Assembly (NCBI GenBank): GCA_021813945.1
Contig: JAKAJD010000003.1
Span: 109,193 to 173,192, forward strand
Direction of reading: 5' to 3'
Length of the DNA stretch: 64,000 nt
Source of the DNA: a bacterium
GTDB taxonomy: Bacteria > Patescibacteriota > Microgenomatia > Curtissbacterales > GWA2-41-24
Shown: piece after piece, positions 4,510 to 43,775 of the stretch
Layout of the letters: every line of letters begins with the position of its first letter
Position numbering within the stretch: position 1 is the first letter of the stretch
Translations under genes and position numbers: made by a program
Notes under the pieces: generated by a model
What the model was told of the DNA's origin: nothing
The model's database searches: none
The model's input: the letters and a program-made list of their open reading frames with translations, nothing else

Positions 4510-5214
4510 ATGAATTATCTCGTTATTGTTGCTGGTGGTGGAGGAAAGAGGATGGGTTTGGGGTTTAACAAAATTTTTGCGAAAGTTGGTGGGAAACCTC
4601 TTATCTACTGGACAATTTTGGCTTTTGAGAAAAGCAAAATTGTGGATGAGATTATTATTTCTGCTGCGGCTTCTGATATTTCTACAATAAGGTCAATCTG
4701 CAAAAAGTACGGATTTTTGAAAGTTAGGGATTTCGTTACTTCTGTTAGTACCCGTCAGGAGTCGACTTTCGAAGTCCTGAAGAAAATAAAAGAAAAGGCT
4801 AAAAAGTCGGATTTAGTAGGGGTTCATAATGCTGCAAATCCGTTTGTAACAAGATTGGAAATAAAAGAAGTTTATCAGCGAGCAGGAAAAACTGGAGCTG
4901 CCCTTCTTGCTCAACCTGCAAGAGACACCGTTAAGGTTTCCAATAAGGGTGGATTTGTAGTCCAGACACCGCCCAGACAACTATCCTGGTATGCCCAAAC
5001 TCCTCAGGTTGCCACTTTTGCCAATTTATGGAAAGCGTTTACCAAAGCACAGAGGCAAAAGTTCATTGGCACAGACGATGCGCAGCTTCTGGAAAGAGCA
5101 GGCATAAAAGTTAAGATTGTACCCTGCTCAAATGTTAATATGAAGATAACTTTCGTGGAGGATTTGACAGTTGCAGGCCAAATTTTAAAAACATTTGCAA
5201 AAAATTATGAATAA
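4510..5214 (+). CDS. ispD: 2-C-methyl-D-erythritol 4-phosphate cytidylyltransferase
   Basis: VIVAGGGGKRMG...NKIF...GKPLI IspD N-terminal signature. Adjacent to dxr and ispF. Confidence 0.85.
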   Translation: MNYLVIVAGGGGKRMGLGFNKIFAKVGGKPLIYWTILAFEKSKIVDEIIISAAASDISTIRSICKKYGFLKVRDFVTSVSTRQESTFEVLKKIKEKAKKSDLVGVHNAANPFVTRLEIKEVYQRAGKTGAALLAQPARDTVKVSNKGGFVVQTPPRQLSWYAQTPQVATFANLWKAFTKAQRQKFIGTDDAQLLERAGIKVKIVPCSNVNMKITFVEDLTVAGQILKTFAKNYE

Positions 5215-5695
5215 TATCTTTAGAGTGGGTATTGGGCAAGATTCGCACAGGTTTTCCAAAGCCAAAAGGCCTCTGGTTTTGGGAGGAGTCGAGGTATCTA
5301 AAAGCGGAGGGCTTGAAGGGAAATCAGATGCGGATGTTGTCTTGCATAGTTTGTGTAATGCTGTTTCATCTGCTTTGGGTGGGGATTCGCTTTCAACTTG
5401 GTCTGATGAGATGTGTAAAAGTGGAGTGACTGATAGCAAAGAGTATCTAAAATTCATTGTCAGCAAAGCATCAAAGAAAAATTATCAAATAGTTAACGCT
5501 TCGGTGGCGGTTGAAGCAAAAAAACCACGAATAGATCTTGCGACAATTAAGAAGATGAAAGATGCGATTTCCGGAATTCTTTCAATTAGTTCTGATTCGG
5601 TCGGGATTACTTTTACTTCCGGTGAAGGATTAACTGCTTTTGGAAAGGGCCTTGGAATCCAATCCATCTCACAAGTTTTGCTGTGCCAAAAATAA
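5207..5695 (+). CDS. ispF: 2-C-methyl-D-erythritol 2,4-cyclodiphosphate synthase
   Basis: RVGIGQDSHRF...LGGV...KSDADVVLHSLCNA IspF motifs. Overlaps the ispD stop. Confidence 0.85.
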   Translation: MNNIFRVGIGQDSHRFSKAKRPLVLGGVEVSKSGGLEGKSDADVVLHSLCNAVSSALGGDSLSTWSDEMCKSGVTDSKEYLKFIVSKASKKNYQIVNASVAVEAKKPRIDLATIKKMKDAISGILSISSDSVGITFTSGEGLTAFGKGLGIQSISQVLLCQK

Positions 5696-6576
5696 CCAAA
5701 AAAGCTTTCTCCAAATTGGATTTAGGGATTCATATTGAACCTAAAAAATCTGAAGATGGGCTCTTTCCGGTTTCATACATCGATTGCCAGGTGGATATTT
5801 GCGATGAGCTTAAATTTGAATCAAGAAATGGAGAGATTGAGATAGTTTGTGATGATCCAGAGGTTCCGATAGACGAGAAAAATTTTATCTATCAAGCGGC
5901 ATTACTTTTGAGGGAATCATCGAAGCGACAAGATCTTGGGGTAAAAATCACCTTAAAAAAGAAAATACCGGTAAAGGCAGGTTTTGGAGGAGGTAGCAGC
6001 GATGGGGCAGCGACCATTTGGGGACTTTGCGAGTTTTGGAATATAAAGGTTTCGAAAAATCAGCTTTTGGAGTTTTCTAAAAAATTAGGCAAAGATTTTT
6101 ACTTTAGCCTTTTTGGAGGTTTGGGAGAGCTAACAAGTGTTGGGCGAGATTATCAATTAAGACCATTTAAATCAGATCTGTCGTTTTGGACAGTTGTTGT
6201 TGTGCCATATGATGAGAAACCTTCAACTGCTTGGATTTATGAGCATCTCGACACTAAAAACATCGGCAAAAATCAGCATAAATTAATAGAATTAAAAAAA
6301 GCACTATTAAAAGGAGATCGGGTGGGGTTTATGTCGAACCTATCAAATGATTTTGAAAGTTCAGTTTCCAGGCATTTTCCGATAGTAACTGATGCTTTAG
6401 CAAATTTGGCAGAAGCCGGTGCATCTGGTAAAATCATGGCTGGCGCCGGGCTTTCAGTTGTAGGTTTTTTTGAGAGCCAAATTAAGGCAAAACAAGCTGC
6501 AAAAACCTTAGAGCGGAATCCAAAATATAGAAAGGTTTTAATTTCCAAAACAAATTTTGACTATGTACAAGCGTGA
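5683..6576 (+). CDS. ispE: 4-diphosphocytidyl-2-C-methyl-D-erythritol kinase (GHMP kinase)
   Basis: GHMP kinase glycine-rich motif IPVKAGFGGGSSDGAA. GTG start overlapping the ispF end. Confidence 0.8.
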   Translation: MPKITKKAFSKLDLGIHIEPKKSEDGLFPVSYIDCQVDICDELKFESRNGEIEIVCDDPEVPIDEKNFIYQAALLLRESSKRQDLGVKITLKKKIPVKAGFGGGSSDGAATIWGLCEFWNIKVSKNQLLEFSKKLGKDFYFSLFGGLGELTSVGRDYQLRPFKSDLSFWTVVVVPYDEKPSTAWIYEHLDTKNIGKNQHKLIELKKALLKGDRVGFMSNLSNDFESSVSRHFPIVTDALANLAEAGASGKIMAGAGLSVVGFFESQIKAKQAAKTLERNPKYRKVLISKTNFDYVQA

Positions 6577-7663
6577 GCAAACAAGACCGGTAAAAATTGG
6601 AAAGCTGACAATCGGTGGTGGAAATCCGGTAAGGGTGCAATCGATGACCCAGACAAAAACACCGGATGTTAAAGGGACGGTTACACAGATCAAGGAGTTG
6701 GAAAAGGCCGGTTGCGAAATAATAAGGGTGACAGCGCCGGATATGGAGTCCGCAAAAGCATTAGGGGCGATTAAGCGACAGATTAATATTCCACTTATAG
6801 TTGATATCCATTTTCAATACCAGTTAGCGCTTGAGGCAATAAAGCAAGGTGTTGATAAAGTCAGAATCAATCCAGGAAATATTGGAGGCGTTGAGCGGGT
6901 AAAAGAGGTTGTTATAGCTTGCAAGAAAAAGAATATTCCGATTCGAATTGGGGTAAACATGGGTTCTTTGGAGCGCGACCTTTTTGCCAAGTACGGAAAA
7001 TATGGTGTGCCAAGGGTGATGGTGGAATCGGCGACAAGGCATGTCAAGATTCTTGAGGATCTTAAGTTCCACGACATTGTAGTTTCTTTGAAAGGCGACA
7101 ACCCGGTTTTGGCAAGGGAGGCTTATATGCTTTTTGCAAAGAGATTCAACTATCCGTTGCATGTGGGAATTACAGAAGCCGGAACTTTGTGGAGTGGAAC
7201 GGTTAAATCGTCTGTTGGGATCGGTTCAATTCTTTCCGAGGGGATAGGAGACACAATCCGGGTTTCAATTGCTGATGATCCCAAAGAACAGGTTAAAGTC
7301 GGTTGGGAAATCCTCAAGTCGTTGGGACTGCGCCAAAAAGGTGTGGATATTATCGCTTGTCCTACTTGCGGCAGGACGGAAATTAATTTGATCGAGCTTG
7401 CCAAAAAGGTCGAAGGAATTGTTTCGGTTTTGGATGCGCCCTTAAAGGTGGCTGTCATGGGATGTGTAGTAAACGGCCCTGGAGAAGCAAGTTTTGCAGA
7501 TATCGGTGTTTGCGGTGGTCGTGGACAAGGAGCAATTTTCAAAAAGGGGAAACTGGTTTCAACATACAAGGAGGCGGAGCTTTTACCTGCGTTTGTGGGA
7601 GAGATCAAAAAGATGCTTGTTGAACGTGGTTTTAGTTCGGAGGCTAAAAAGCTGCATATATGA
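6557..7663 (+). CDS. ispG: 4-hydroxy-3-methylbut-2-enyl diphosphate synthase
   Basis: VKIGKLTIGGGNPVRVQSMT and the ACPTCGRT Fe-S motif. Confidence 0.9.
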   Translation: MTMYKREQTRPVKIGKLTIGGGNPVRVQSMTQTKTPDVKGTVTQIKELEKAGCEIIRVTAPDMESAKALGAIKRQINIPLIVDIHFQYQLALEAIKQGVDKVRINPGNIGGVERVKEVVIACKKKNIPIRIGVNMGSLERDLFAKYGKYGVPRVMVESATRHVKILEDLKFHDIVVSLKGDNPVLAREAYMLFAKRFNYPLHVGITEAGTLWSGTVKSSVGIGSILSEGIGDTIRVSIADDPKEQVKVGWEILKSLGLRQKGVDIIACPTCGRTEINLIELAKKVEGIVSVLDAPLKVAVMGCVVNGPGEASFADIGVCGGRGQGAIFKKGKLVSTYKEAELLPAFVGEIKKMLVERGFSSEAKKLHI

Positions 7664-10489: not shown

Positions 10490-11689
10490 TTGGCAGGATC
10501 TAAACTGGATTCTGTGGTAGTAGAGCATGGCGACGATCGTGGGGTAATAGAGGGAGAAAAACCATTTCCCACAGACGGAATTTTTGGCCTAAAGAACAGA
10601 ATTGACGGACTTTATGATGTCGACAGGGAAATTGCTGCAAGGGTTCTAAGAGTAACTAATTCGTGGGGCAAGACTAATCCACCAGCTTCGATGGCTCCGT
10701 TTTTAGAAAGGGGCTTCGGGAGTGTTGAAAAAGTAGAAAACCAGCCAATCGTTAGAGTTGATGTAATTCCACTTGGTGAGGGAACATTGTTTAATCATTT
10801 AAGAAGCAGAAGGCCGGGAATGTCCTCTTTGGCGGATCTTGATGAGAAAGTTCAGGAGATAATTGATAGTTCACTTGCTAAGGGCGACGTTTTTGCAAAT
10901 CCTTTGGATGGAACTCCTGAATCGACCTGGGGAAGGCTTCAAGGAAACCATTCAGTTACTGCCGAAAATGTTGCCAAGTTTGACGGAGAACATTCTTTGG
11001 TAATTTTTAACCAGCCGCACCCTTTGAGATATGGCAGAGAAGAAGTTGTCGATTACCTGGAAACTGCTAAACGAGTTTGGGATGAGCAGAGAAGGCACGA
11101 TAAAGATGCTGAATACCCGTTTTTGATTTGGCAGGCAATGGGCAAATCTGCATCATCGGTCACCCATGGCCACATCCAGGTTGTTTCTGCAAGGGAAAGA
11201 CATTATCCAAAAGTTGACAGGTTGAGGACTCAGGCGGCTGATTATAAAGATAAATATGGAGCAAATTTTTGGACCGACTACGAACATTTACATGACAAGC
11301 TGGGCCTTATGATCAGAAGAAATGGTTCTTGTGTCATGGCTCACGTTGCACCGATTAAGGAGAAAGAAATTTGGATGTTGGGTATGGATTTTGATCGAGA
11401 ATTTATGAATGACACATTCGATTTGCTAGATGTTTATTTACACAGGTTGGGAGTCAGAAGTTTTACTTTATCTATTGCTAAGCCTCCGATTGCCACTACG
11501 GAAGAAATGCGAAGCAGGGGTGAGGATTGGTCAGAATTTCCTGTACTTTTAAGGTTGGTTGACAGGGGTGACCCAACTTCACCAACCGCTGATATAGGCG
11601 CAATGGAGCTTTATGCGGCTTCAGTTGTTGCTTCAGATCCGTATGATGTTAAACGTGTGCTTTCGGAGCATTGGGGCGAAGCGGCGTGA
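10490..11689 (+). CDS. hypothetical protein; possible GalT-like HIT-superfamily nucleotidyltransferase/phosphorylase
   Basis: GKSASSVTHGHIQVVSA resembles the GalT GAAMGCSNPHPHGQIWA active-site region. The track start is a TTG, so the true start is uncertain. Confidence 0.35.
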   Translation: MAGSKLDSVVVEHGDDRGVIEGEKPFPTDGIFGLKNRIDGLYDVDREIAARVLRVTNSWGKTNPPASMAPFLERGFGSVEKVENQPIVRVDVIPLGEGTLFNHLRSRRPGMSSLADLDEKVQEIIDSSLAKGDVFANPLDGTPESTWGRLQGNHSVTAENVAKFDGEHSLVIFNQPHPLRYGREEVVDYLETAKRVWDEQRRHDKDAEYPFLIWQAMGKSASSVTHGHIQVVSARERHYPKVDRLRTQAADYKDKYGANFWTDYEHLHDKLGLMIRRNGSCVMAHVAPIKEKEIWMLGMDFDREFMNDTFDLLDVYLHRLGVRSFTLSIAKPPIATTEEMRSRGEDWSEFPVLLRLVDRGDPTSPTADIGAMELYAASVVASDPYDVKRVLSEHWGEAA

Positions 11690-18885: not shown

Positions 18886-19455
18886 TTATGGGTTACAGAC
18901 ATAATAAAAACCTGCCCCAAGAGCAGCTGTGATTCCACAAGCTGCACCAGAGGTTCCCTGCACTAATGGAGATCCATTATCTCCTGATGGGTCGTTGGTA
19001 TTTTCCAAGGTTGCCCTCAGGTAGAATGTTGTATAACTGTCTGGTTTTCCACTCCCATCATCAGGACAGGCTGTTGCTCTGGAAAGTGTTGTGGCGCTGT
19101 AATAGTAAGTATTTGGGCTGGACTGGGTTGGGTCTTGTGGTGCACTTTTTAGGTATTTTAAGGTTGCAAGATATGATGAGATACTGGTGTATTGAACGTT
19201 CCCATTTATTGCTGATCGAAGTGGATAACCTCCTCCCGTGCAGTCGTTGCTGATAAGCACAAGGGCTTTTTTGACGGCATCCAGGTCGGCTTTTCTTCGG
19301 GCGTCACGGCTTTTCATTTGGGCAGAGGTAAAAGAGGCGACGATGAAGGCGGCGAGAATACCTATTATAGAGATAACTACAAGGAGCTCAATGAGGGTAA
19401 AGCCTGGTTTCCAATTTTTAATTTGTAATTTGTAATTTGTAATTTGGCAGGTCAT
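18886..19455 (-). CDS. type IV pilin with an extended 18-aa leader
   Basis: ATG at 19455 gives MTCQITNYKLQIKNWKPG^FTLIELLVVISIIGILAAF. The track start at 19482 is a TTG. Confidence 0.75.
   Translation of the reverse strand: MTCQITNYKLQIKNWKPGFTLIELLVVISIIGILAAFIVASFTSAQMKSRDARRKADLDAVKKALVLISNDCTGGGYPLRSAINGNVQYTSISSYLATLKYLKSAPQDPTQSSPNTYYYSATTLSRATACPDDGSGKPDSYTTFYLRATLENTNDPSGDNGSPLVQGTSGAACGITAALGAGFYYVCNP
19413..19447. repeat. heptanucleotide tandem repeat (AATTTGT)x3 plus degenerate flanking copies, inside the pilin leader coding region
   Basis: aatttttaatttgtaatttgtaatttgtaatttgg. On the minus strand this encodes ITNYKLQIKNW. Confidence 0.8.
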
Positions 19456-19475
19456 ACTCTTCAGCGTAAAGGGTG

Positions 19476-19504
19476 TTGACAATAGAAGTCAAGGAAGTTA
19501 GAAT
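19476..19504 (+). promoter_or_regulatory. sigma70-like promoter TTGACA-17-TAGAAT upstream of the 16S rRNA
   Basis: TTGACA at 19476-19481, a 17-nt spacer, then TAGAAT at 19499-19504. The same architecture recurs at 54805. Confidence 0.4.
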
Positions 19505-19723
19505 TCTTTTCGCTGCATTATATATATGGTAATGTAGTTGCGGCCTGGAAAGCCGTAGGAAAACTTGAAAACGGACCTAAAACTAGAATCTGTTTCAAGC
19601 TTCTAGTTTTTTTTCGCTCTTTTACATTCCGTAATAGACAACACTAACCATGATTAAGAATTTTAATTCTTGAAAGTGGTACCCAAATTAGTAATTTCCT
19701 AAGAGTTTAAGGTGAAAATTTTT

Positions 19724-21216
<1,493 letters not shown>

Positions 21217-22146: not shown

Positions 22147-22218
22147 GGCCTGGTAGCCAAGTGGTAAGGCAAGGATCTGCAAAATCCTTATACGTCGGTT
22201 CGATTCCGATCCAGGCCT
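22147..22218 (+). tRNA. tRNA-Cys (GCA)
   Basis: Cloverleaf with acceptor GGCCTGG/CCAGGCC and anticodon loop CTGCAAA. Confidence 0.85.
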
Positions 22219-22224
22219 CAAATA

Positions 22225-22869
22225 TTAGGGGGCGGTTGTGCCCGAAAGGTTAGTGCCTGTTACTTCTTTGCAATTGGGTTTTTGACTTAATTCATTAATA
22301 TCTGCACATCTGTAGATTGCTTTGGTTGGGTCCTTTGGATCTTCAAGAAGCGTGCCAACCCAGTATGTACATCGTGTATTCGGAGGACTTGGTGTGCCCA
22401 GACAGTTGCCGCCTGCACCGCCAATCACACTTGGCTCATACTTATAGAAATATTTCTTGCTGTTTGTGGGGTCGACCGGCATGAATTTAAGGTACTTTGT
22501 TTTGACGACAAGCTCCTGATATAGATAGTCGTTTGCACTTTGGCCCCAGCCGGTTTGGACAACCCATGAGTCGGCCCCGTTGGTATAATCCGGACAAGGT
22601 TTGCCGCTATTGGGCCCTGGATTAACACTTGACCCGATGCTGGCATCGCAGCCGTTTTCTTTAGGGTAGGTACCGTATTGCTCACCATAGTCGCTTAGCG
22701 CGTTGGCGATCATGCTTATGTCTGTTTTCCTTTGTGAATCGCGGGCTTGTTTTAAGCGTTTTGCTGGGTTAAATGCTCTTAGGGTGAAAGCTGCAATGAT
22801 GCCAAGCACTGTTATAACTACAACGAGTTCAATTATTGTGAAACCGCGTCGGGCATGGTTTTTTGTCAC
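22225..22869 (-). CDS. type IV pilin / pseudopilin
   Basis: RRG^FTIIELVVVITVLGIIAAF leader, then NPAKRLKQARDSQRKTDI. Confidence 0.75.
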   Translation of the reverse strand: MTKNHARRGFTIIELVVVITVLGIIAAFTLRAFNPAKRLKQARDSQRKTDISMIANALSDYGEQYGTYPKENGCDASIGSSVNPGPNSGKPCPDYTNGADSWVVQTGWGQSANDYLYQELVVKTKYLKFMPVDPTNSKKYFYKYEPSVIGGAGGNCLGTPSPPNTRCTYWVGTLLEDPKDPTKAIYRCADINELSQKPNCKEVTGTNLSGTTAP

Positions 22870-22906: not shown

Positions 22907-23521
22907 TCAAAGGGAAAAATTTTGTACTTCTTTACAGCCGGTTCCGGCTGCTAAATCTTCGATATCGGAGCAGCGGAAAATTGGTTTGGTTGGGTCATCG
23001 GGATCTTCCAGCCGGCCGCCTATCCAGTAGCGGCAAGAACTATTTTGAGTGCCTGTCCCACCGCAAATCGCTTCTGCAAGACTTCTTGGCTCGTAGCGGT
23101 AATGGTAAGTAGTGTTGTTAATGGGATCAACCGGAAGTCTTTTTAGAAGCTGCTGCTGCGTTATAAGGTTGTAATATATCCAGCTTGTGAATCCTCCGTC
23201 TGCAGCACCATTGCAACCCGTCCAGCAGGCGAGAACTCTTCGCGGGGGGCAAGCACCGCCGTCGCTGGAAATGCTTGTGTCGCAAAAGGTTTCACCCGGG
23301 TAGTAACCGGTTATTGTTTGATAGGCAACTAGAGCATTGGCTATGGAGTTAATGTCTGTTTTCCTTTGGGAATCGCGTGCTTGTTTTAGACGTTTTGCGG
23401 GATTAACGGCGACAAGAACGGCCCCAGCCAGGCTAGTAAGTAGCGCAATTACTATCAAAAGTTCAATTAAAGTAAATGCCTGTTTCCTTTTTGGGCTTTT
23501 TGGTGGTTTTTTGTGTGACAC
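22907..23521 (-). CDS. type IV pilin-like protein (paralog of 22225-22869, Ala at -1)
   Basis: KQA^FTLIELLIVIALL, and NPAKRLKQARDSQRKTDI is shared. The C-terminus LEDPDDPTKPIFRCSDIEDL parallels that of its neighbour. Confidence 0.65.
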   Translation of the reverse strand: MSHKKPPKSPKRKQAFTLIELLIVIALLTSLAGAVLVAVNPAKRLKQARDSQRKTDINSIANALVAYQTITGYYPGETFCDTSISSDGGACPPRRVLACWTGCNGAADGGFTSWIYYNLITQQQLLKRLPVDPINNTTYHYRYEPRSLAEAICGGTGTQNSSCRYWIGGRLEDPDDPTKPIFRCSDIEDLAAGTGCKEVQNFSL

Positions 23522-23653: not shown

Positions 23654-23726
23654 GGGCGATTAGTTCAGTGGTTAGAACGCTGTCCTGATAAGACAGAGGT
23701 CAATGGTTCGATTCCATTATCGCCCA
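23654..23726 (+). tRNA. tRNA-Ile (GAU)
   Basis: Cloverleaf with anticodon loop CTGATAA and T loop TTCGATT. Confidence 0.9.
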
Positions 23727-36564: not shown

Positions 36565-36637
36565 GGGCCCGTAGTTCACCTGGTAGAACACCCCACTTGC
36601 ACTGGGGAGGTAAGCGGTTCGAGTCCGCTCGGGTCCA
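36565..36637 (+). tRNA. tRNA-Ala (UGC)
   Basis: Anticodon loop CTTGCAC. A G3:U70 pair is present in the acceptor stem. Confidence 0.85.
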
Positions 36638-36758
36638 CACTTCGGTCTGGTAAAAGCAGACCTCAGTGTAAACTACTAAGAACGTAATCTTTTAAAGATT
36701 AAAGGGATTACGGAATTAATAGTTTATCCTGAACCAATTTTTGGCGAAGGGGCACCTT

Positions 36759-36781
36759 AACAAGTGAATATTTTGTAAGTA
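36759..36781 (+). other. 5' half of the 23S precursor processing stem (pairs with 39989-40010)
   Basis: aacaagtgaatattttgtaagta is the reverse complement of tacttacaaatattcacttgtt at 39989-40010. Confidence 0.6.
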
Positions 36782-36829
36782 ATTTACATAGAAGTTTGGT
36801 TCTAGCGTTTTTTGAACCGAACGGAATGT

Positions 36830-39955
<3,126 letters not shown>

Positions 39956-39988
39956 TTCATTCCGTTTGGTTTTGAAAGCGTTAGATTT

Positions 39989-40010
39989 TACTTACAAATA
40001 TTCACTTGTT
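39989..40010 (+). other. 3' half of the 23S precursor processing stem
   Basis: Complementary to 36759-36781. Confidence 0.6.
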
Positions 40011-40043
40011 TTTTCTTTCTTTGGACCCGAAATTTTATCAGGG

Positions 40044-40073
40044 TTGACATTTTCACAGTTAGAGGTTTTTAAT
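40044..40073 (+). promoter_or_regulatory. promoter-like TTGACA-18-TTTAAT upstream of the 23S-5S spacer gene cassette
   Basis: TTGACA at 40044-40049. TTTAAT at 40068-40073. Confidence 0.3.
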
Positions 40074-40125
40074 ACGCTTATCCCACACCGCTTAGGCGGG
40101 GCGAGGGATATTTTTTTTGGAAGAC

Positions 40126-40425
40126 ATGAGTTGCGAAGCACATAATGGAAATCTGAAACAAGAAGAGATGGTTGATGGTGTCCATTATCTATTTCCACAT
40201 CACGGTGCCAATCGTCTGGATGCTCAGATCAGGGCAGGAAACGATGGTCCTCAAATACAGTTATTGCGTAGAGAAGTAGAATCGTGGGTTAAAGCGGGAA
40301 GACCTCTTCTCGATACAAATCAACCGGGGGAGCTGGTTAGATCACCTTCCAATTTACCGCTCTGGGACAGGGCAAAAGTGCGACAAATAGTACAAAGCTG
40401 GCAACATAGCAGTAGAGGGTGGTAA
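40126..40425 (+). CDS. hypothetical protein A of the 23S-5S spacer cassette (99 aa)
   Basis: ATG at 40126 (the track shows a TTG at 40117). R/G/Q/P-rich. No recognisable motif. Confidence 0.45.
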   Translation: MSCEAHNGNLKQEEMVDGVHYLFPHHGANRLDAQIRAGNDGPQIQLLRREVESWVKAGRPLLDTNQPGELVRSPSNLPLWDRAKVRQIVQSWQHSSRGW

Positions 40426-40429
40426 TTCT

Positions 40430-40648
40430 ATGGCAGAGCTAGAACAACAAATAATTGCAGCAGGACAGGCACAAGAACAACTGCCGAAGATTGCCGGAGG
40501 TTCCGGATTGTCAAAGTCTGCACTAAGAAGGCGAGAAGCCACTCATCAAGCGCTTGCCGATACTCTTGACCGAATTAAGAGCTTTGATCCATCTTCTTTA
40601 CTACCTGGTGAAAGTCGCACTTATAAACAACAATATATGAGAAGATGA
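40430..40648 (+). CDS. hypothetical protein B (72 aa)
   Basis: SD GAGGGTGG lies 8 nt upstream. Starts 4 nt after protein A. Confidence 0.45.
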   Translation: MAELEQQIIAAGQAQEQLPKIAGGSGLSKSALRRREATHQALADTLDRIKSFDPSSLLPGESRTYKQQYMRR

Positions 40649-40866
40649 ACAGGATAGAGGGTCAGCCTAATATGAATCCAGTTTTGGCTGGTGAAGGCAT
40701 TCGTAGCGGACCAGAAATGCCCAGAGAGTCAAAATCCGCTTTCCGCAGGGCAGTTGATCTTTCTTTTGATGCACAGGATGATGTAAGACGTTTTGCAATA
40801 ATTGCAGATATGGCAGCAGCCGGCACTATATACGAAAAGCCAAAAGGCCGTAAGAGGGGAAGATGA
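40645..40866 (+). CDS. hypothetical protein C (73 aa)
   Basis: ATGA stop/start overlap with protein B. Confidence 0.45.
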   Translation: MNRIEGQPNMNPVLAGEGIRSGPEMPRESKSAFRRAVDLSFDAQDDVRRFAIIADMAAAGTIYEKPKGRKRGR

Positions 40867-41078
40867 GCAGAAGAGAAGACGGACCGCAAAGGGGTAATCA
40901 AACAGAGAGTGCAATGGGTGTTCATGGTAAAGACAGAAAAGAACTTAGAAGGTTAGCCAGATATGCTGCAATGGGTCGAGTCGGAAATTCGGTTCCTGGA
41001 CAGGGTTTCCTGCCGGAATCGCCAATAGTTCCAACACAAGGTCCGGGTGCCCAAAATGAAGGACAATCTAACATTTGA
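40863..41078 (+). CDS. hypothetical protein D (71 aa, R/G-rich)
   Basis: ATGA overlap with protein C. SD AGAGGGGA upstream. Confidence 0.45.
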   Translation: MSRREDGPQRGNQTESAMGVHGKDRKELRRLARYAAMGRVGNSVPGQGFLPESPIVPTQGPGAQNEGQSNI

Positions 41079-41140
41079 ATCGGCCAAGTTTAGTCTTGGC
41101 CTAATTTAATCCCGGTAGGGATTATTTTTTTGGAGAATAT

Positions 41141-41674
41141 ATGCCAGCAAGATCAGAATTATCAATACCTTTAGGCCCAACTGCACGTGTGGACAGGACA
41201 CATCCGGCGCTTAACTCTCCGCGTGTATTAATTGCTGATTTAACTGGGCCACAGAGGATAGAGGCGAAAGCTTCGGATGTTGTTGCAGCTGTAGCTTTAC
41301 AAGTAAAAAGGGATGCTCCGTTTCTTCCCAAATTGGTTGAGGCATTAGGTGGTGTCGAGTCGCTTGATCATTTGACGCGCACAGTTTCGGATATCTGTGG
41401 GAACCGTGCAATAAGTGAATTAAAGGTAGAAGTTATAAAACGGTTCGGTGTGCCCAACGACTACAATGGTTTGCCGTTTGCAGTAAGAGAGGCGACTTTG
41501 CAATGGGCAAGAAAAGAAGATTCTCACCCACAGGTTGCAGCGTCTACTAGGAAAGTTGTCCGGGCGTCACTAAAAATTGAACCTAAATCAGCGTTTAAGC
41601 CTTCAAAATCTGGTAAACCACGAGGCCCAGGTAGTCACACACGCGGAACTAGAGGTAAAGAAGGTAATAGATAG
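41141..41674 (+). CDS. hypothetical protein E (177 aa, basic G/R/K-rich C-terminal tail)
   Basis: SD GGAGAA upstream. Preceded by GC-rich hairpins at 41083-41101 and 41111-41131. Confidence 0.5.
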   Translation: MPARSELSIPLGPTARVDRTHPALNSPRVLIADLTGPQRIEAKASDVVAAVALQVKRDAPFLPKLVEALGGVESLDHLTRTVSDICGNRAISELKVEVIKRFGVPNDYNGLPFAVREATLQWARKEDSHPQVAASTRKVVRASLKIEPKSAFKPSKSGKPRGPGSHTRGTRGKEGNR

Positions 41675-41712
41675 TATTGAAATTTCGAATTGATTCTTGT
41701 AAAATTTGCAAC

Positions 41713-41826
41713 GTGGTGATTTGAGCGAAGTGGAACCACTCCTTCCCATTCCGAACAGGGCAGTGAAACGCTTTAGCGCAGACGATAGTGATTGGGCAAC
41801 TTTTCGCGAAAATATGTCATCGCCAC
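41713..41826 (+). rRNA. rrf: 5S ribosomal RNA
   Basis: CCCATTCCGAACAGGGCAGTGAAACGCTTTAGCGC core. The terminal helix GTGGTGAT pairs with ATCGCCAC. Confidence 0.85.
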
Positions 41827-41834
41827 ATTAATTT

Positions 41835-41859
41835 AGCTCAACTTTGGTTGGGCTTTTTT
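41835..41859 (+). terminator. rho-independent terminator after the 5S (agctcaac-ttt-ggttgggct + T5)
   Basis: Hairpin followed by a T run. A near-identical module recurs at 44550-44573. Confidence 0.5.
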
Positions 41860-41867
41860 AATGGGAA

Positions 41868-43775
41868 TTAGGGGCAGGTTGAAACGGCGTCATCTGCGTA
41901 GCCGTCAATGATTAAATGGTGGAGGCTTTTTACTTTGGCTTCTTCGGCAAAACTTTTAGCTTTTTTGCAATCATTTAACTTGGCGTAGATTTCGGCAAGA
42001 TGGAGGCTGTAGATCGGGTTTTTGGGATCCATTTGTCGTGACTGCTGAGCCAAAAGCAGCGCTTTTTGAGTATCTTTTTGCAGGTAATAAATTATCAGCT
42101 GGTCTCGGGCGAAACCGTTTTGGGTGTCAAAGGAGAGTAAGTTTTGTAGTTGGTTTATCGCTTCTTTTTCATCGGCAGGGTCGAATTTTAAAGCAGTTGC
42201 AAGTTCGGGTTTGACCTTCGAAAGATCAACAGGAATCGATTTTATAACATCGTGGCGCGCGTAGATTATATAGATATTATTAAGATAAATGAGCTTCCAA
42301 TTTGGAAAATTTTGAACCGGTGTGTAAACAAAAGCCATTGTATTTGGCTGGCTTTTTATAACAGTGTCTATATCGAATCTTTCGAGAAGTTCTTGCCAGC
42401 CCTTGGATCCTTCAAGCAGAATACTTTCTTCTCGGTAATCTTGCTGTTTGCGGTTATATGTTTGAGCATCTGCAAAAGTCTGAATATTGGGAAAGTACCA
42501 AATTAGGTAGTTATTCCAAATGGAACTGGTAAAAATATGTTTGGAATTTAGGTATGATTTTATTATTTGCGGAGAGTTTTCCGGAAATTTTTTCAGCCAC
42601 CAGCGGTTGACTACACCAACAGGGGTCTGCTGGCCGTTTTGTGAAAGGGAGGTGATAACGAAAGTATTTTCTCTTGAGCCGATTACTTCTCCATTTGGAA
42701 TCGATCCTGCAACAAGGAGTAGAAAAATTCCCAGAGTGACGTAGGCTAGCGGTTTTAGGTATTTTGGATCCGCTTTAAGTCTTGTGGCTAAAAATACAAA
42801 GGAAGGCAAGGTCACGATAACTGCAAGAGGGATTGTTCGAAAGTATTTGAAAGGAATCAGGATAAATATGAGGTTAAAAAGTAAAAGGAGACGATCATTT
42901 AAAGTCAGATTTTTGGAATGCTTGAGACCAATTGCGGCTACCGCAATAAGTAAAGCTAGAAAAACTAGATAAAAATAAACATCGAAAGGGACCTGATTTA
43001 AAAGTTGAAAACCGTGTGTTTGCAGGATTCTGTCTTTAAGTGAGCCGAATTCCACTAAGTTTGCTCCGGCAAAAGTGCCAGCTTTCAAAAAAGCAAATAA
43101 GCGCTGGAATTGTATGAGTGATAAGGAAATTGCCAAAATTGAGATTGCAAAAAATCGGTTTAGATATGGTAAATCGGACTTATTCTTGATTTTTTCTGTC
43201 AGGACAAGTAGGCAATAAAAGGCAACGAGGCCTACTCCCACAATTGAAAACGGATGGAAGTTTGGCCAGCCTAAGAAAATCAGTGGCAAAAGAAAAAATG
43301 CAGGGTTGAGTTTCCTTTGGGTAAAGTAGGACAGATAAAGGTAATTGACGAATGCAACAAAAAGATAGGAAAAACTTTCCGGGCGGTCATTGGTTCTTGC
43401 CGAAAGAATGTAGGCTGTAAAAAGAATTAAAGCGTAGAGTAAAAGGTTGTTTTTGGTGAACAATTTGCAGGTTATATAAACAAAGTAAACTGTTGCAAGT
43501 GCTAATACGATTCGTATAAATATCAAGCTATTTAGGCCAAAATTGGTTACAAAAAGATAGTAGATTACGCCGCTTGCCCATTCGACCGAAAAGAGAGTTT
43601 TGTTTTGGGGGCCGTATTGAAATTTGTCTGTTTTGGGAATGCTTTTTTGCTGCCAAACTTCCCGGCCGGTTGACATAAAAAAGAAGGTATCTGCACTGGT
43701 GTGTACGGAGGTTGCGAAAAATATTGCGACTAAGGCGAAGATTGCGATCAAGCTAAGATTTAGCCTTTTTGTCAT
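41868..43775 (-). CDS. large polytopic membrane protein (GT-C / ArnT-like glycosyltransferase architecture) with C-terminal TPR repeats
   Basis: More than 10 predicted TM helices in the N-terminal 450 aa. The C-terminal 150 aa is TPR-like (AQQSRQMDPKNPIYSLHLAEIYAKLNDCKKAKSFAEEA). Confidence 0.5.
   Translation of the reverse strand: MTKRLNLSLIAIFALVAIFFATSVHTSADTFFFMSTGREVWQQKSIPKTDKFQYGPQNKTLFSVEWASGVIYYLFVTNFGLNSLIFIRIVLALATVYFVYITCKLFTKNNLLLYALILFTAYILSARTNDRPESFSYLFVAFVNYLYLSYFTQRKLNPAFFLLPLIFLGWPNFHPFSIVGVGLVAFYCLLVLTEKIKNKSDLPYLNRFFAISILAISLSLIQFQRLFAFLKAGTFAGANLVEFGSLKDRILQTHGFQLLNQVPFDVYFYLVFLALLIAVAAIGLKHSKNLTLNDRLLLLFNLIFILIPFKYFRTIPLAVIVTLPSFVFLATRLKADPKYLKPLAYVTLGIFLLLVAGSIPNGEVIGSRENTFVITSLSQNGQQTPVGVVNRWWLKKFPENSPQIIKSYLNSKHIFTSSIWNNYLIWYFPNIQTFADAQTYNRKQQDYREESILLEGSKGWQELLERFDIDTVIKSQPNTMAFVYTPVQNFPNWKLIYLNNIYIIYARHDVIKSIPVDLSKVKPELATALKFDPADEKEAINQLQNLLSFDTQNGFARDQLIIYYLQKDTQKALLLAQQSRQMDPKNPIYSLHLAEIYAKLNDCKKAKSFAEEAKVKSLHHLIIDGYADDAVSTCP

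Follow-up and report, generated by a model that had tools for sequence, protein, structure and literature searches.

In the 64,000 nucleotides (nt) of a Curtissbacterales genome that were analysed here and are called the window throughout, five consecutive small open reading frames (ORFs), named A to E, are located on the forward strand between the 23S ribosomal RNA (rRNA) gene (36835-39880, +; Rfam RF02541, 2442 bits) and the 5S rRNA gene (41712-41828, +; Rfam RF00001, 76.4 bits). These ORFs probably represent a vertically inherited, lineage-specific operon encoding five small basic proteins of helical or disordered character, which lies between apparently separate 23S and 5S units. Judged from its relatives, ORF E appears as the core gene of this module and as the founder of an undescribed protein family, and ORFs A to D as accessory genes of a narrower clade.

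Coding status and composition of the five ORFs

ORF A (40126-40425, +) encodes 99 amino acids (aa) from an ATG start codon, or 102 aa from a TTG at 40117, and its product is predicted to be helical with an isoelectric point (pI) of 8. After a gap of 4 nt it is followed by ORF B (40430-40648, +), which encodes a basic protein of 72 aa. ORF C (40645-40866, +; 73 aa) ends in a basic KGRKRGR tail, and ORF D (40863-41078, +; 71 aa) carries the conserved motifs RKxLRRxARYAAMG and NEGQ. Both B and C as well as C and D are joined by ATGA overlaps, and Shine-Dalgarno (SD)-like sites are present as GAGGGTGG and AGAGGGGA. ORF E (41141-41674, +) is the longest with 177 aa and a pI of 10.4. This tight arrangement of same-strand ORFs in an unusual place had been noted in an earlier, sequence-only reading of the window, and the ORFs turned out to be genuine protein genes.

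The five ORFs all code for protein, with a codon usage like that of the host. On the + strand of 40101-41700, 93% of the sequence is taken up by ORFs of 70 aa or more, whereas 2000 dinucleotide-preserving shuffles averaged 14%, did not exceed 71% and thus never reached the observed value. The guanine-cytosine (GC) content by codon position is 0.58/0.48/0.32, with the same pattern in each of the five ORFs. A host codon model, built from 33 long genes of the window and scored as log-likelihood per codon, gave 0.082 for A, 0.157 for B, 0.221 for C, 0.193 for D and 0.213 for E, whereas the controls yielded 0.242±0.077 (72-codon pieces of host genes), −0.231 (wrong frames) and at most 0.032 (rRNA pieces). 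In comparison with relatives, the ratio of nonsynonymous to synonymous substitution rates (dN/dS) is 0.13-0.26 for E, about 0.37-0.4 for D and 0.27 for A. The mismatches are concentrated at third codon positions, and nucleotide indels are mostly multiples of three, with few alignment gaps of 1-2 nt. Codon-position composition, third-position mismatches and dN/dS below 1 speak independently for coding sequence.

The stretch could instead be a structured non-coding RNA or a remnant of rRNA spacer in which the ORFs are spurious, as the DNA is purine-rich like rRNA and several antisense ORFs of 60-87 aa exist as well. These antisense ORFs score about 0 in the host codon model, with the exception of one at 0.14, a value that non-coding frames also reach. 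An Rfam (15) scan of 39881-41711, even at E ≤ 10, returned only the 5S gene and sub-threshold noise, and the coding signals of the ORFs themselves, from the host codon model to the in-frame indels, stand against this explanation. It is already refuted for B to E and can be regarded as extremely improbable for the stretch as a whole.

The composition of the encoded proteins is unusual, as had been suggested before. Compared to the host proteins, A to E are enriched in arginine (10.4% vs 4.5%), proline (7.1 vs 4.0) and glutamine (5.7 vs 3.3) and depleted in isoleucine (4.3 vs 7.1) and phenylalanine (2.0 vs 4.7). The accompanying claim that the DNA is visibly more GC-rich than its surroundings holds only weakly: the GC content of 0.46 exceeds that of the window (0.43), but is inside the host-gene range of 0.35-0.48. 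A foreign composition of the DNA is not supported either, since the codon scores of B to E (0.16-0.22) are in the host range (0.24±0.08) and the GC content at third codon positions (GC3) is 0.32, below the 0.39 of the host. Therefore, the shift in composition stems from proteins rich in arginine, proline and glutamine, which raise the GC content at the first and second codon positions, and not from alien DNA.

Inheritance of the locus and position of ORF E

The position of E could be read from the contigs L010, L011, L013, L015-L019, L111, L114, L116 and L117-L119 of relatives, which together with the window represent nine lineages. A homolog of E adjoins the 5S gene in 9/9 of these lineages and directly follows the 23S gene in eight of them. 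In L114, a gene on the opposite strand encoding a 609-aa membrane protein separates the 23S gene from the module, which still adjoins the 5S gene. In L011 and L117-119 the 5S gene has the opposite orientation to E and remains next to it; it must therefore be served by a promoter of its own in these contigs. The sequence of the short contigs L007-L009 breaks off only a few bases from the expected 5S start. In every lineage, 31-156 nt separate the stop codon of E from the 5S gene.

The flanks are syntenic as well, with the order carbohydrate kinase, tRNA-Ala, 23S, E, 5S, S1-domain protein and RadA. The RadA proteins of the relatives are 62-79% identical to that of the window, and the latter shares 64-70% identity with those of metagenome-assembled genomes (MAGs) of Candidatus Curtissbacteria, which assigns the organism to this group of the Microgenomates within the candidate phyla radiation. 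The conservation of the neighborhood across this range of RadA divergence indicates that the block was inherited vertically, and the proposal of an acquired module is not supported. Six loci retrieved with the exact E protein share the same neighbors and a spacer with 100% identity, which excludes assembly chimerism.

Two lineages deviate in the gene that occupies the interval. In the Curtissbacteria species representatives L020 and L022, with RadA identities of 67-69%, the slot contains ORFs of 144 and 176 aa, respectively (L020 380-900; L022 172-702). They were considered as divergent E proteins and rejected, due to a hhalign probability below 1%. L020 keeps the layout of the locus, i.e., TTGACA-18-TAGACT, a hairpin, U7, GGAAA and ATG, and the −10 box of its 5S gene overlaps the stop codon of the slot ORF. 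The E family may be younger than the slot and the regulatory layout that goes with it.

Further genes and mobile elements were observed around the locus in relatives. L114 harbors two paralogs (424-2253, −, and 4970-6853, −) of the 635-aa TPR-containing membrane protein which is encoded at 41868-43775 (−) in the window; one lies between the 23S gene and the A-E module, the other at the ancestral site after the 5S gene. In L022, an IS200-like Y1 transposase gene (1081-1746) is located right after the 5S gene, and in L116 a gene for a sigma-70 factor directly follows the 5S gene. The 23S genes of L015 (1506-1733), L016 (335-904) and L119 (292-786) contain a group I intron and LAGLIDADG genes.

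An origin as a foreign module, i.e., a toxin-antitoxin system, a phage-derived element or a mobile element inserted into the rRNA spacer, would be in line with the atypical amino acid composition rich in arginine, proline and glutamine, the lack of known families and the homing endonucleases known from rRNA spacers of the candidate phyla radiation (CPR; PMC8172020). The host-like codon usage and GC3 and the syntenic vertical inheritance argue against it, and no flanking repeats delimit an insert. As stated before, no family could be assigned to A to E: Pfam (E ≤ 10) and NCBIfam (E ≤ 1) gave none, ribosomal proteins included, and PHROGs gave only noise at E ≥ 0.08. PADLOC, Pfam, PHROGs and NCBIfam returned nothing for A to E and for the proteins of the relatives, so that integrase, transposase, nuclease, toxin, antitoxin and defence matches are all missing in these searches. 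The absence of LAGLIDADG, GIY-YIG and HNH homing endonucleases from A to E was borne out by Pfam at E ≤ 10; in contrast, the LAGLIDADG genes inside the 23S genes of L016 and L119 do carry the domain in precomputed annotation. The ORFs also lie outside the 23S processing helix, and no intron model matched in the interval. A phage origin found no support, as tblastn against 50,697 phage genomes gave no match and an IMG/VR contig scan and a plasmid search revealed no relatives of the module. The idea of a foreign module is therefore largely refuted and must be considered very improbable.

Promoter, leader hairpins and the 5S unit

A sigma-70-type promoter-like element is located upstream of the module at 40044-40073 (+), consisting of TTGACA (40044-49), an 18-nt spacer and TTTAAT (40068-73), and agrees with the consensus at 11/12 positions. 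It is followed by a leader (40079-40118, +) with a UAUCCC…GGGAUA hairpin (40079-40110), which folds at −14 kcal/mol, and a U8 run (40111-40118), which abuts the SD sequence GGAAGA in front of the ATG at 40126. Both the promoter-like element and the hairpin with its U-run are thus present as first reported. Transcription of the operon A-D(E) from this promoter would start at about 40080, at the base of the leader hairpin.

The promoter is conserved as TTGACA-17/18-TTTAAT in L114 and L111. The outer stem of the leader and the U8 run are identical in both, despite saturated synonymous sites in the adjacent genes, and the inner part differs in L111. L114 keeps promoter and leader though the opposite-strand gene parts its module from the 23S gene. 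A comparison of 16 module leaders of the window and its relatives showed the order of hairpin, U-run of 6-8, SD and ATG in 13 of them, and in nine of these a promoter-like element that agrees with the consensus at 10/12 positions or more stands upstream. In most of these the −10 box precedes the U-run by 37-47 nt, and more distant lineages use unrelated hairpin sequences.

A second element of this kind is located between D and E (41082-41131, +). It comprises the hairpins GGCCAAG/CTTGGCC (41082-41101) and AAUCCC/GGGAUU (41107-41124), a U7 run (41125-41131) and the SD sequence GGAGA. In L114 and L111 the stems are conserved and the loops are variable. L009 keeps the second hairpin, which is preceded there by the extended −10 motif TGGTATAAT. 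The element shares the core AGGGAT(A/T)AT7GGA with the leader of A (repeat D3). A hairpin and U-run directly before SD and ATG were found only for A and E, i.e., for two of the 54 genes of the window. With a GC-containing hairpin followed by a U-run of at least six, 40079-40118 and 41107-41131 have the sequence form of intrinsic terminators or attenuators and can be regarded as candidates for such structures.

Promoter-proximal attenuators based on intrinsic terminators are known from the pyrBI and pyrE leaders, and stabilizing stem-loops at the 5′ end from ompA. The leader of the module resembles them in its stable hairpin and U-run between promoter and start codon, directly upstream of the SD sequence. 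However, it is only about 40 nt long and thereby leaves no room for an antiterminator fold or a leader peptide, and the sequence of its stem is conserved, not merely its pairing. The hairpin and U-run may attenuate transcription close to the promoter, serve as an operator or stabilize the 5′ end, and would thereby limit or tune the expression of the operon. The invariance of the stem sequence hints at sequence-specific recognition, possibly at autoregulation by a protein of the module, so that the AUCCC/GGGAU stem could serve as a binding site for the product of the operon itself.

Alternatively, the module might be expressed mainly by read-through from the 23S gene, with the mRNA freed by RNase III cleavage, the hairpin acting as a 5′ stabilizer and TTGACA being incidental. 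The 23S processing helix had been described as a 22-bp stem closing the precursor; it is real and longer, with a 5′ arm at about 36759-36833 (+; inverted repeats I1 and I3) and a 3′ arm at about 39951-40010 (+), next to which a T-rich run is found. The duplex of both arms folds at −65 kcal/mol. Read-through would fit the location of the module on the strand of the 23S gene, 130-470 nt after it in the window and in 8/9 lineages, and the region from the processing helix to ORF A gave no call of a strong terminator other than the leader hairpin. On the other hand, the promoter is kept at 10-11/12 positions in many lineages, at a fixed distance of 37-47 nt to the U-run, and also in L114, where the convergent 609-aa gene blocks read-through from the 23S gene. 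Hairpin and U8 resemble an intrinsic terminator, which would stop read-through too, and the 5S gene has its own promoter-like element. Expression mainly from 23S read-through thus seems unlikely, and the same can be assumed for the earlier suggestion that the module chiefly rides on rRNA transcription.

The 5S gene looks like a stand-alone unit, whose primary transcript would nearly equal the mature 5S RNA. A promoter-like element (TTGAAA-17-TAAAAT, 10/12 positions) is located at 41677-41705 (+) and ends 6 nt before the mature 5′ end. The unit is closed at 41835-41860 (+) by a hairpin with T-run, similar to an intrinsic terminator, whose first position lies 7 nt beyond the 3′ end. L111 shows the same arrangement before its 5S gene, with TTGAAA-17-TAAAAT followed by TTGCAA. 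L015 and L020 have equivalent −10 boxes 6-7 nt before the 5S gene, and in L007 and L009 such boxes follow E.

In three contigs an extra segment of 110-180 nt separates the 5S gene from E or from the slot ORF (L013 1370-1525, L010 1220-1338, L022 703-879). It has its own TATAAT-like box upstream and begins with CTGGTGT, like the 5′ end of the 5S gene. In L013 it is a degenerate copy of the 5′ half of the 5S gene with an insertion, and L010 and L022 share GCGACTACCRAGTTAGACT. The segment may be a remnant of a 5S pseudogene or a small RNA.

Bacterial regulators are commonly encoded beside their targets. Accordingly, E could be a DNA-binding local regulator or a nucleoid-associated protein that controls the 5S promoter as well as its own and coordinates the output of 5S with that of 23S after the uncoupling of both genes. 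The short distance between the E stop codon and the 5S gene in all lineages, the 5S −35 box that abuts or overlaps the end of E in several of them, and the basic nature of the protein with its flexible tails of arginine, lysine and glycine would be compatible with such a role. However, E matches neither a helix-turn-helix nor another DNA-binding family, the surroundings of the 5S promoters showed no conserved operator-like repeat, and the proposal is wholly inferential. A regulator of this kind appears quite improbable.

Protein families, possible function and rRNA gene layout

Three relatives of E were identified by a word-indexed search, with identities of 67%, 53% and 35%. A profile search of 1.84 billion representatives (at 50% identity) yielded 13 family members, and the family counts 15 or more clusters at this level of identity. 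The exact E protein is encoded on 13 contigs, which belong to three MAGs at NCBI and to several assemblies from ENA and Logan. A scan of genome and metagenome contigs for relatives with an alignment of close E proteins returned only chance pattern matches, and an alignment of 15 E sequences contained no stretch conserved enough to serve as a scan pattern; L111 and L114 were recovered with a hand-made degenerate DNA pattern for KPRGPGSHTR.

The family is characterized by an N-terminal motif (R[VI]DR[ST]HPPL), two motifs in the helices (LTGPQRIEAxAxD and FAVRExxLxWA) and a C-terminal motif (W/F-K-x-x-K-S-G-x-P-R-G-P-G-S-[HY]), which is followed by a basic tail. AlphaFold2 (AF2) predicts a five-helix core of residues 36-124 with a predicted local distance difference test (pLDDT) score above 90 and disordered tails. 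No match to this fold was found in the PDB, nor among the viral folds of BFVD at E ≤ 0.001. The family profile and the C-terminal tail gave only noise against PDB sequences, e.g., the Tho1 SAP domain at E 0.85. A resemblance of the tail to bL34 and uL15 was noticed by eye only; it lacked profile support and was not used.

E diverges fast, with 54% identity where RadA has 79% and about 30% where RadA has 65%. At the C-terminus, F[KR]PS[KQ]SGKPRGPGSHTR is fully kept while synonymous sites vary, and in the closest subfamily the last approximately 20 residues do not vary at all, with codons differing at synonymous sites. The constraint must therefore act on the protein, and not on the DNA or the adjacent 5S promoter. 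E, with its rigid five-helix core, would be expected to bind a highly conserved nucleic-acid partner by means of the invariant tail rich in glycine, proline, arginine and lysine.

Within the family, proteins of about 300 aa with two copies of the helical domain were observed (P0011 and P0015, from L011 and L014), and an upstream ORF of L014 (1-360) carries an E-like helix, VRREANIILRNW. These sequences indicate that tandem duplication of the domain or the gene occurs in the E family.

The accessory ORFs are found in fewer relatives. ORF A is the least certain of the five by composition, yet it has a homolog in L114 with 47% identity over 88 aa; no other homolog was found among 5.8 billion proteins. 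AF2 run on the single sequence gave a mean pLDDT of 51.5, i.e., low confidence. L111 and L116 share a different ORF family in the first position (L111_X/L116). ORF B is 40% identical over its full length to the single B/C-type gene of L114 (E 1e-7) and has no further match in the protein database. Genes resembling C are present in L114 and L009, the only scored link being that of L009_C to L114_BC (E 0.008). The C-terminal RRFAIIADMAAAG region of ORF C resembles, by eye, the partial upstream ORFs of L008/L009 and the C-terminus of L114_BC, and ORF C of the window itself has no significant BLAST match. Homologs of ORF D are located directly upstream of E in L008/L114, L009 and L111. B and C are probably duplicates, because both carry the motif SKSA[LF]RR; BLAST within the window gave no significant paralogy among A to E, and the relation of B to C is suggested only by the comparison with L114.

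Ribosomal-protein operons possess autoregulatory 5′ leaders, and proteins such as uL15 and bL34 have extended basic tails. The module shares with these operons the small and very basic proteins, the tightly coupled ORFs and a conserved structured leader over the ribosome-binding region, and the disordered tails rich in glycine, arginine and lysine are more conserved than the globular part, as in ribosomal proteins. In contrast to the latter, A to E match no ribosomal family by sequence or profile. A function linked to the ribosome, e.g., to the ribosome itself, the 5S ribonucleoprotein (RNP) or its assembly, is our leading guess because of the persistent 5S adjacency and the tails resembling those of ribosomal proteins; it is a tentative guess and, taken by itself, rather doubtful. 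The more specific version, in which E, perhaps with A to D, is a new lineage-specific component or assembly factor of the large subunit or the 5S RNP and the hairpin-U8 leader is its autoregulatory operator, has to be called distinctly unlikely.

It is also possible, albeit not probable, that the module has no functional link to rRNA at all. Fast-evolving, lineage-specific small proteins would then be kept in place by stable synteny, and the spacer would be a cradle for gene gain and turnover. Several observations point in this direction: the entire neighborhood is syntenic and not E alone, unrelated ORFs occupy the slot in L020 and L022, A and B are almost without relatives, the first-position ORF varies by lineage (A or the L111_X/L116 family), an additional gene has entered the locus in L114, the 5S gene of L022 has an IS200-like gene as its neighbor, and E evolves much faster than RadA. 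They are countered by the location of E next to the 5S gene in 9/9 lineages despite the inversion of 5S in two of them and an insertion next to the 23S gene, by the invariant 20-residue tail, which implies a highly conserved partner, and by the conserved leader specific to the module, which implies dedicated regulation.

Several points also speak against our preferred reading of a vertically inherited operon between separate rRNA units. The place of E could be purely historical, as the whole block is syntenic, and the unrelated ORFs in L020 and L022 suggest that the slot rather than the E family may be conserved. E has no recognizable RNA-binding domain, and the codon score of ORF A is borderline. 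A promoter followed at once by a terminator-like hairpin is paradoxical if termination is efficient. The hairpin stems are invariant in the near clade and show no covariation, and promoters, transcription starts and termination are read from consensus matches and conservation.

Among known proteins, the 23S rRNA intervening-sequence protein/Avd family (PF05635), a four-helix bundle, comes closest to E in concept, being a small basic helical-bundle protein that was first noticed because the DNA of rRNA operons encodes it. However, E does not match PF05635 even at E ≤ 10, it has five helices and long conserved tails, and it is located outside the 23S processing helix. A Foldseek comparison to 2rld, a member of PF05635 in the PDB, was not significant (E 8.9, TM-score 0.17-0.25). 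In L116, a PF05635 (23S_rRNA_IVP/Avd-like) gene is located just downstream of RadA (10554-10895).

The layout of the rRNA genes in the window is scattered. The 16S rRNA gene (19722-21214; Rfam) is separated from the 23S gene by 15.6 kb, and the distance between 23S and 5S is 1.8 kb, with genes in between. The interval from 16S to 23S contains housekeeping genes on both strands, namely for GDPD, two pilin-like N_methyl proteins, an L,D-transpeptidase, a ClpB-like ATPase, a Mur ligase, PGK, a P-type ATPase, GAPDH, PhoU, PHO4 and a carbohydrate kinase. It also includes tRNA-Cys (at 22147) and tRNA-Ile (at 23654), and tRNA-Ala (36565-36638; ARAGORN) is located just upstream of the 23S gene. Because of the 15.6 kb of housekeeping genes on both strands, the 16S, 23S and 5S genes all appear to be unlinked in the genome of the window, and the A-E cluster looks like an independent operon which happens to stand between two rRNA genes.

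Unlinked rRNA genes, with protein-coding genes between 23S and 5S, have been described for some circularized CPR genomes (Lui et al., 2021, PLoS Comput Biol, PMC8172020, citing Brewer et al., 2020, ISME J). According to this study, it is very unusual for bacteria to have 23S and 5S apart, and the spacer genes are often homing endonucleases. The distances and intervening genes of the window resemble those genomes. In contrast, the spacer genes there are mentioned in passing as 'not unusually' homing endonucleases, none of which is present in the module, and no conserved family was reported, whereas the locus described here combines a conserved, vertically inherited family, equipped with a promoter and leader of its own, with a 5S gene that appears to be autonomous. 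That CPR bacteria can carry genes between 23S and 5S is thus already known; the E protein family is undescribed. In the literature on such genes, only this passing mention was found, and no report of the E leader or of an autonomous 5S unit.

CPR ribosomes are reduced and unusual, and their rRNA genes are scattered. Two questions in these bacteria are how missing ribosomal proteins are compensated and how 23S and 5S are balanced once they are uncoupled. Microgenomates lack bL9, and about half of the CPR phyla lack the 5S-binding bL25 (PMC9297842). E, which is kept beside the 5S gene through inversions and insertions and has a dedicated leader, is a concrete candidate for a factor linked to the ribosome or to rRNA. 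If its assignment to the ribosome or the 5S RNP were true, it would represent a new ribosome-associated family in a group without bL9 and often without bL25. If E is unrelated to the ribosome, the locus still documents an apparently autonomous bacterial 5S gene with its own promoter and terminator, and presents the 23S-5S interval as a place where small genes are gained, duplicated (B and C) and replaced. In that case, too, the foreign look of the module has been traced to amino acid content and not to horizontal transfer.

Further observations concern the rRNA genes themselves and their flanks. Three pilin-like genes with a prokaryotic N-terminal methylation motif flank the 16S gene (18886-19482, −; 22225-22869, −; 22907-23521, −). 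The 23S gene has a length of 3046 nt compared to the 2925 positions of the model and contains a 24-nt inverted repeat with 83% complementarity and a 52-nt loop (38665-38764), which may represent a lineage-specific expansion hairpin.

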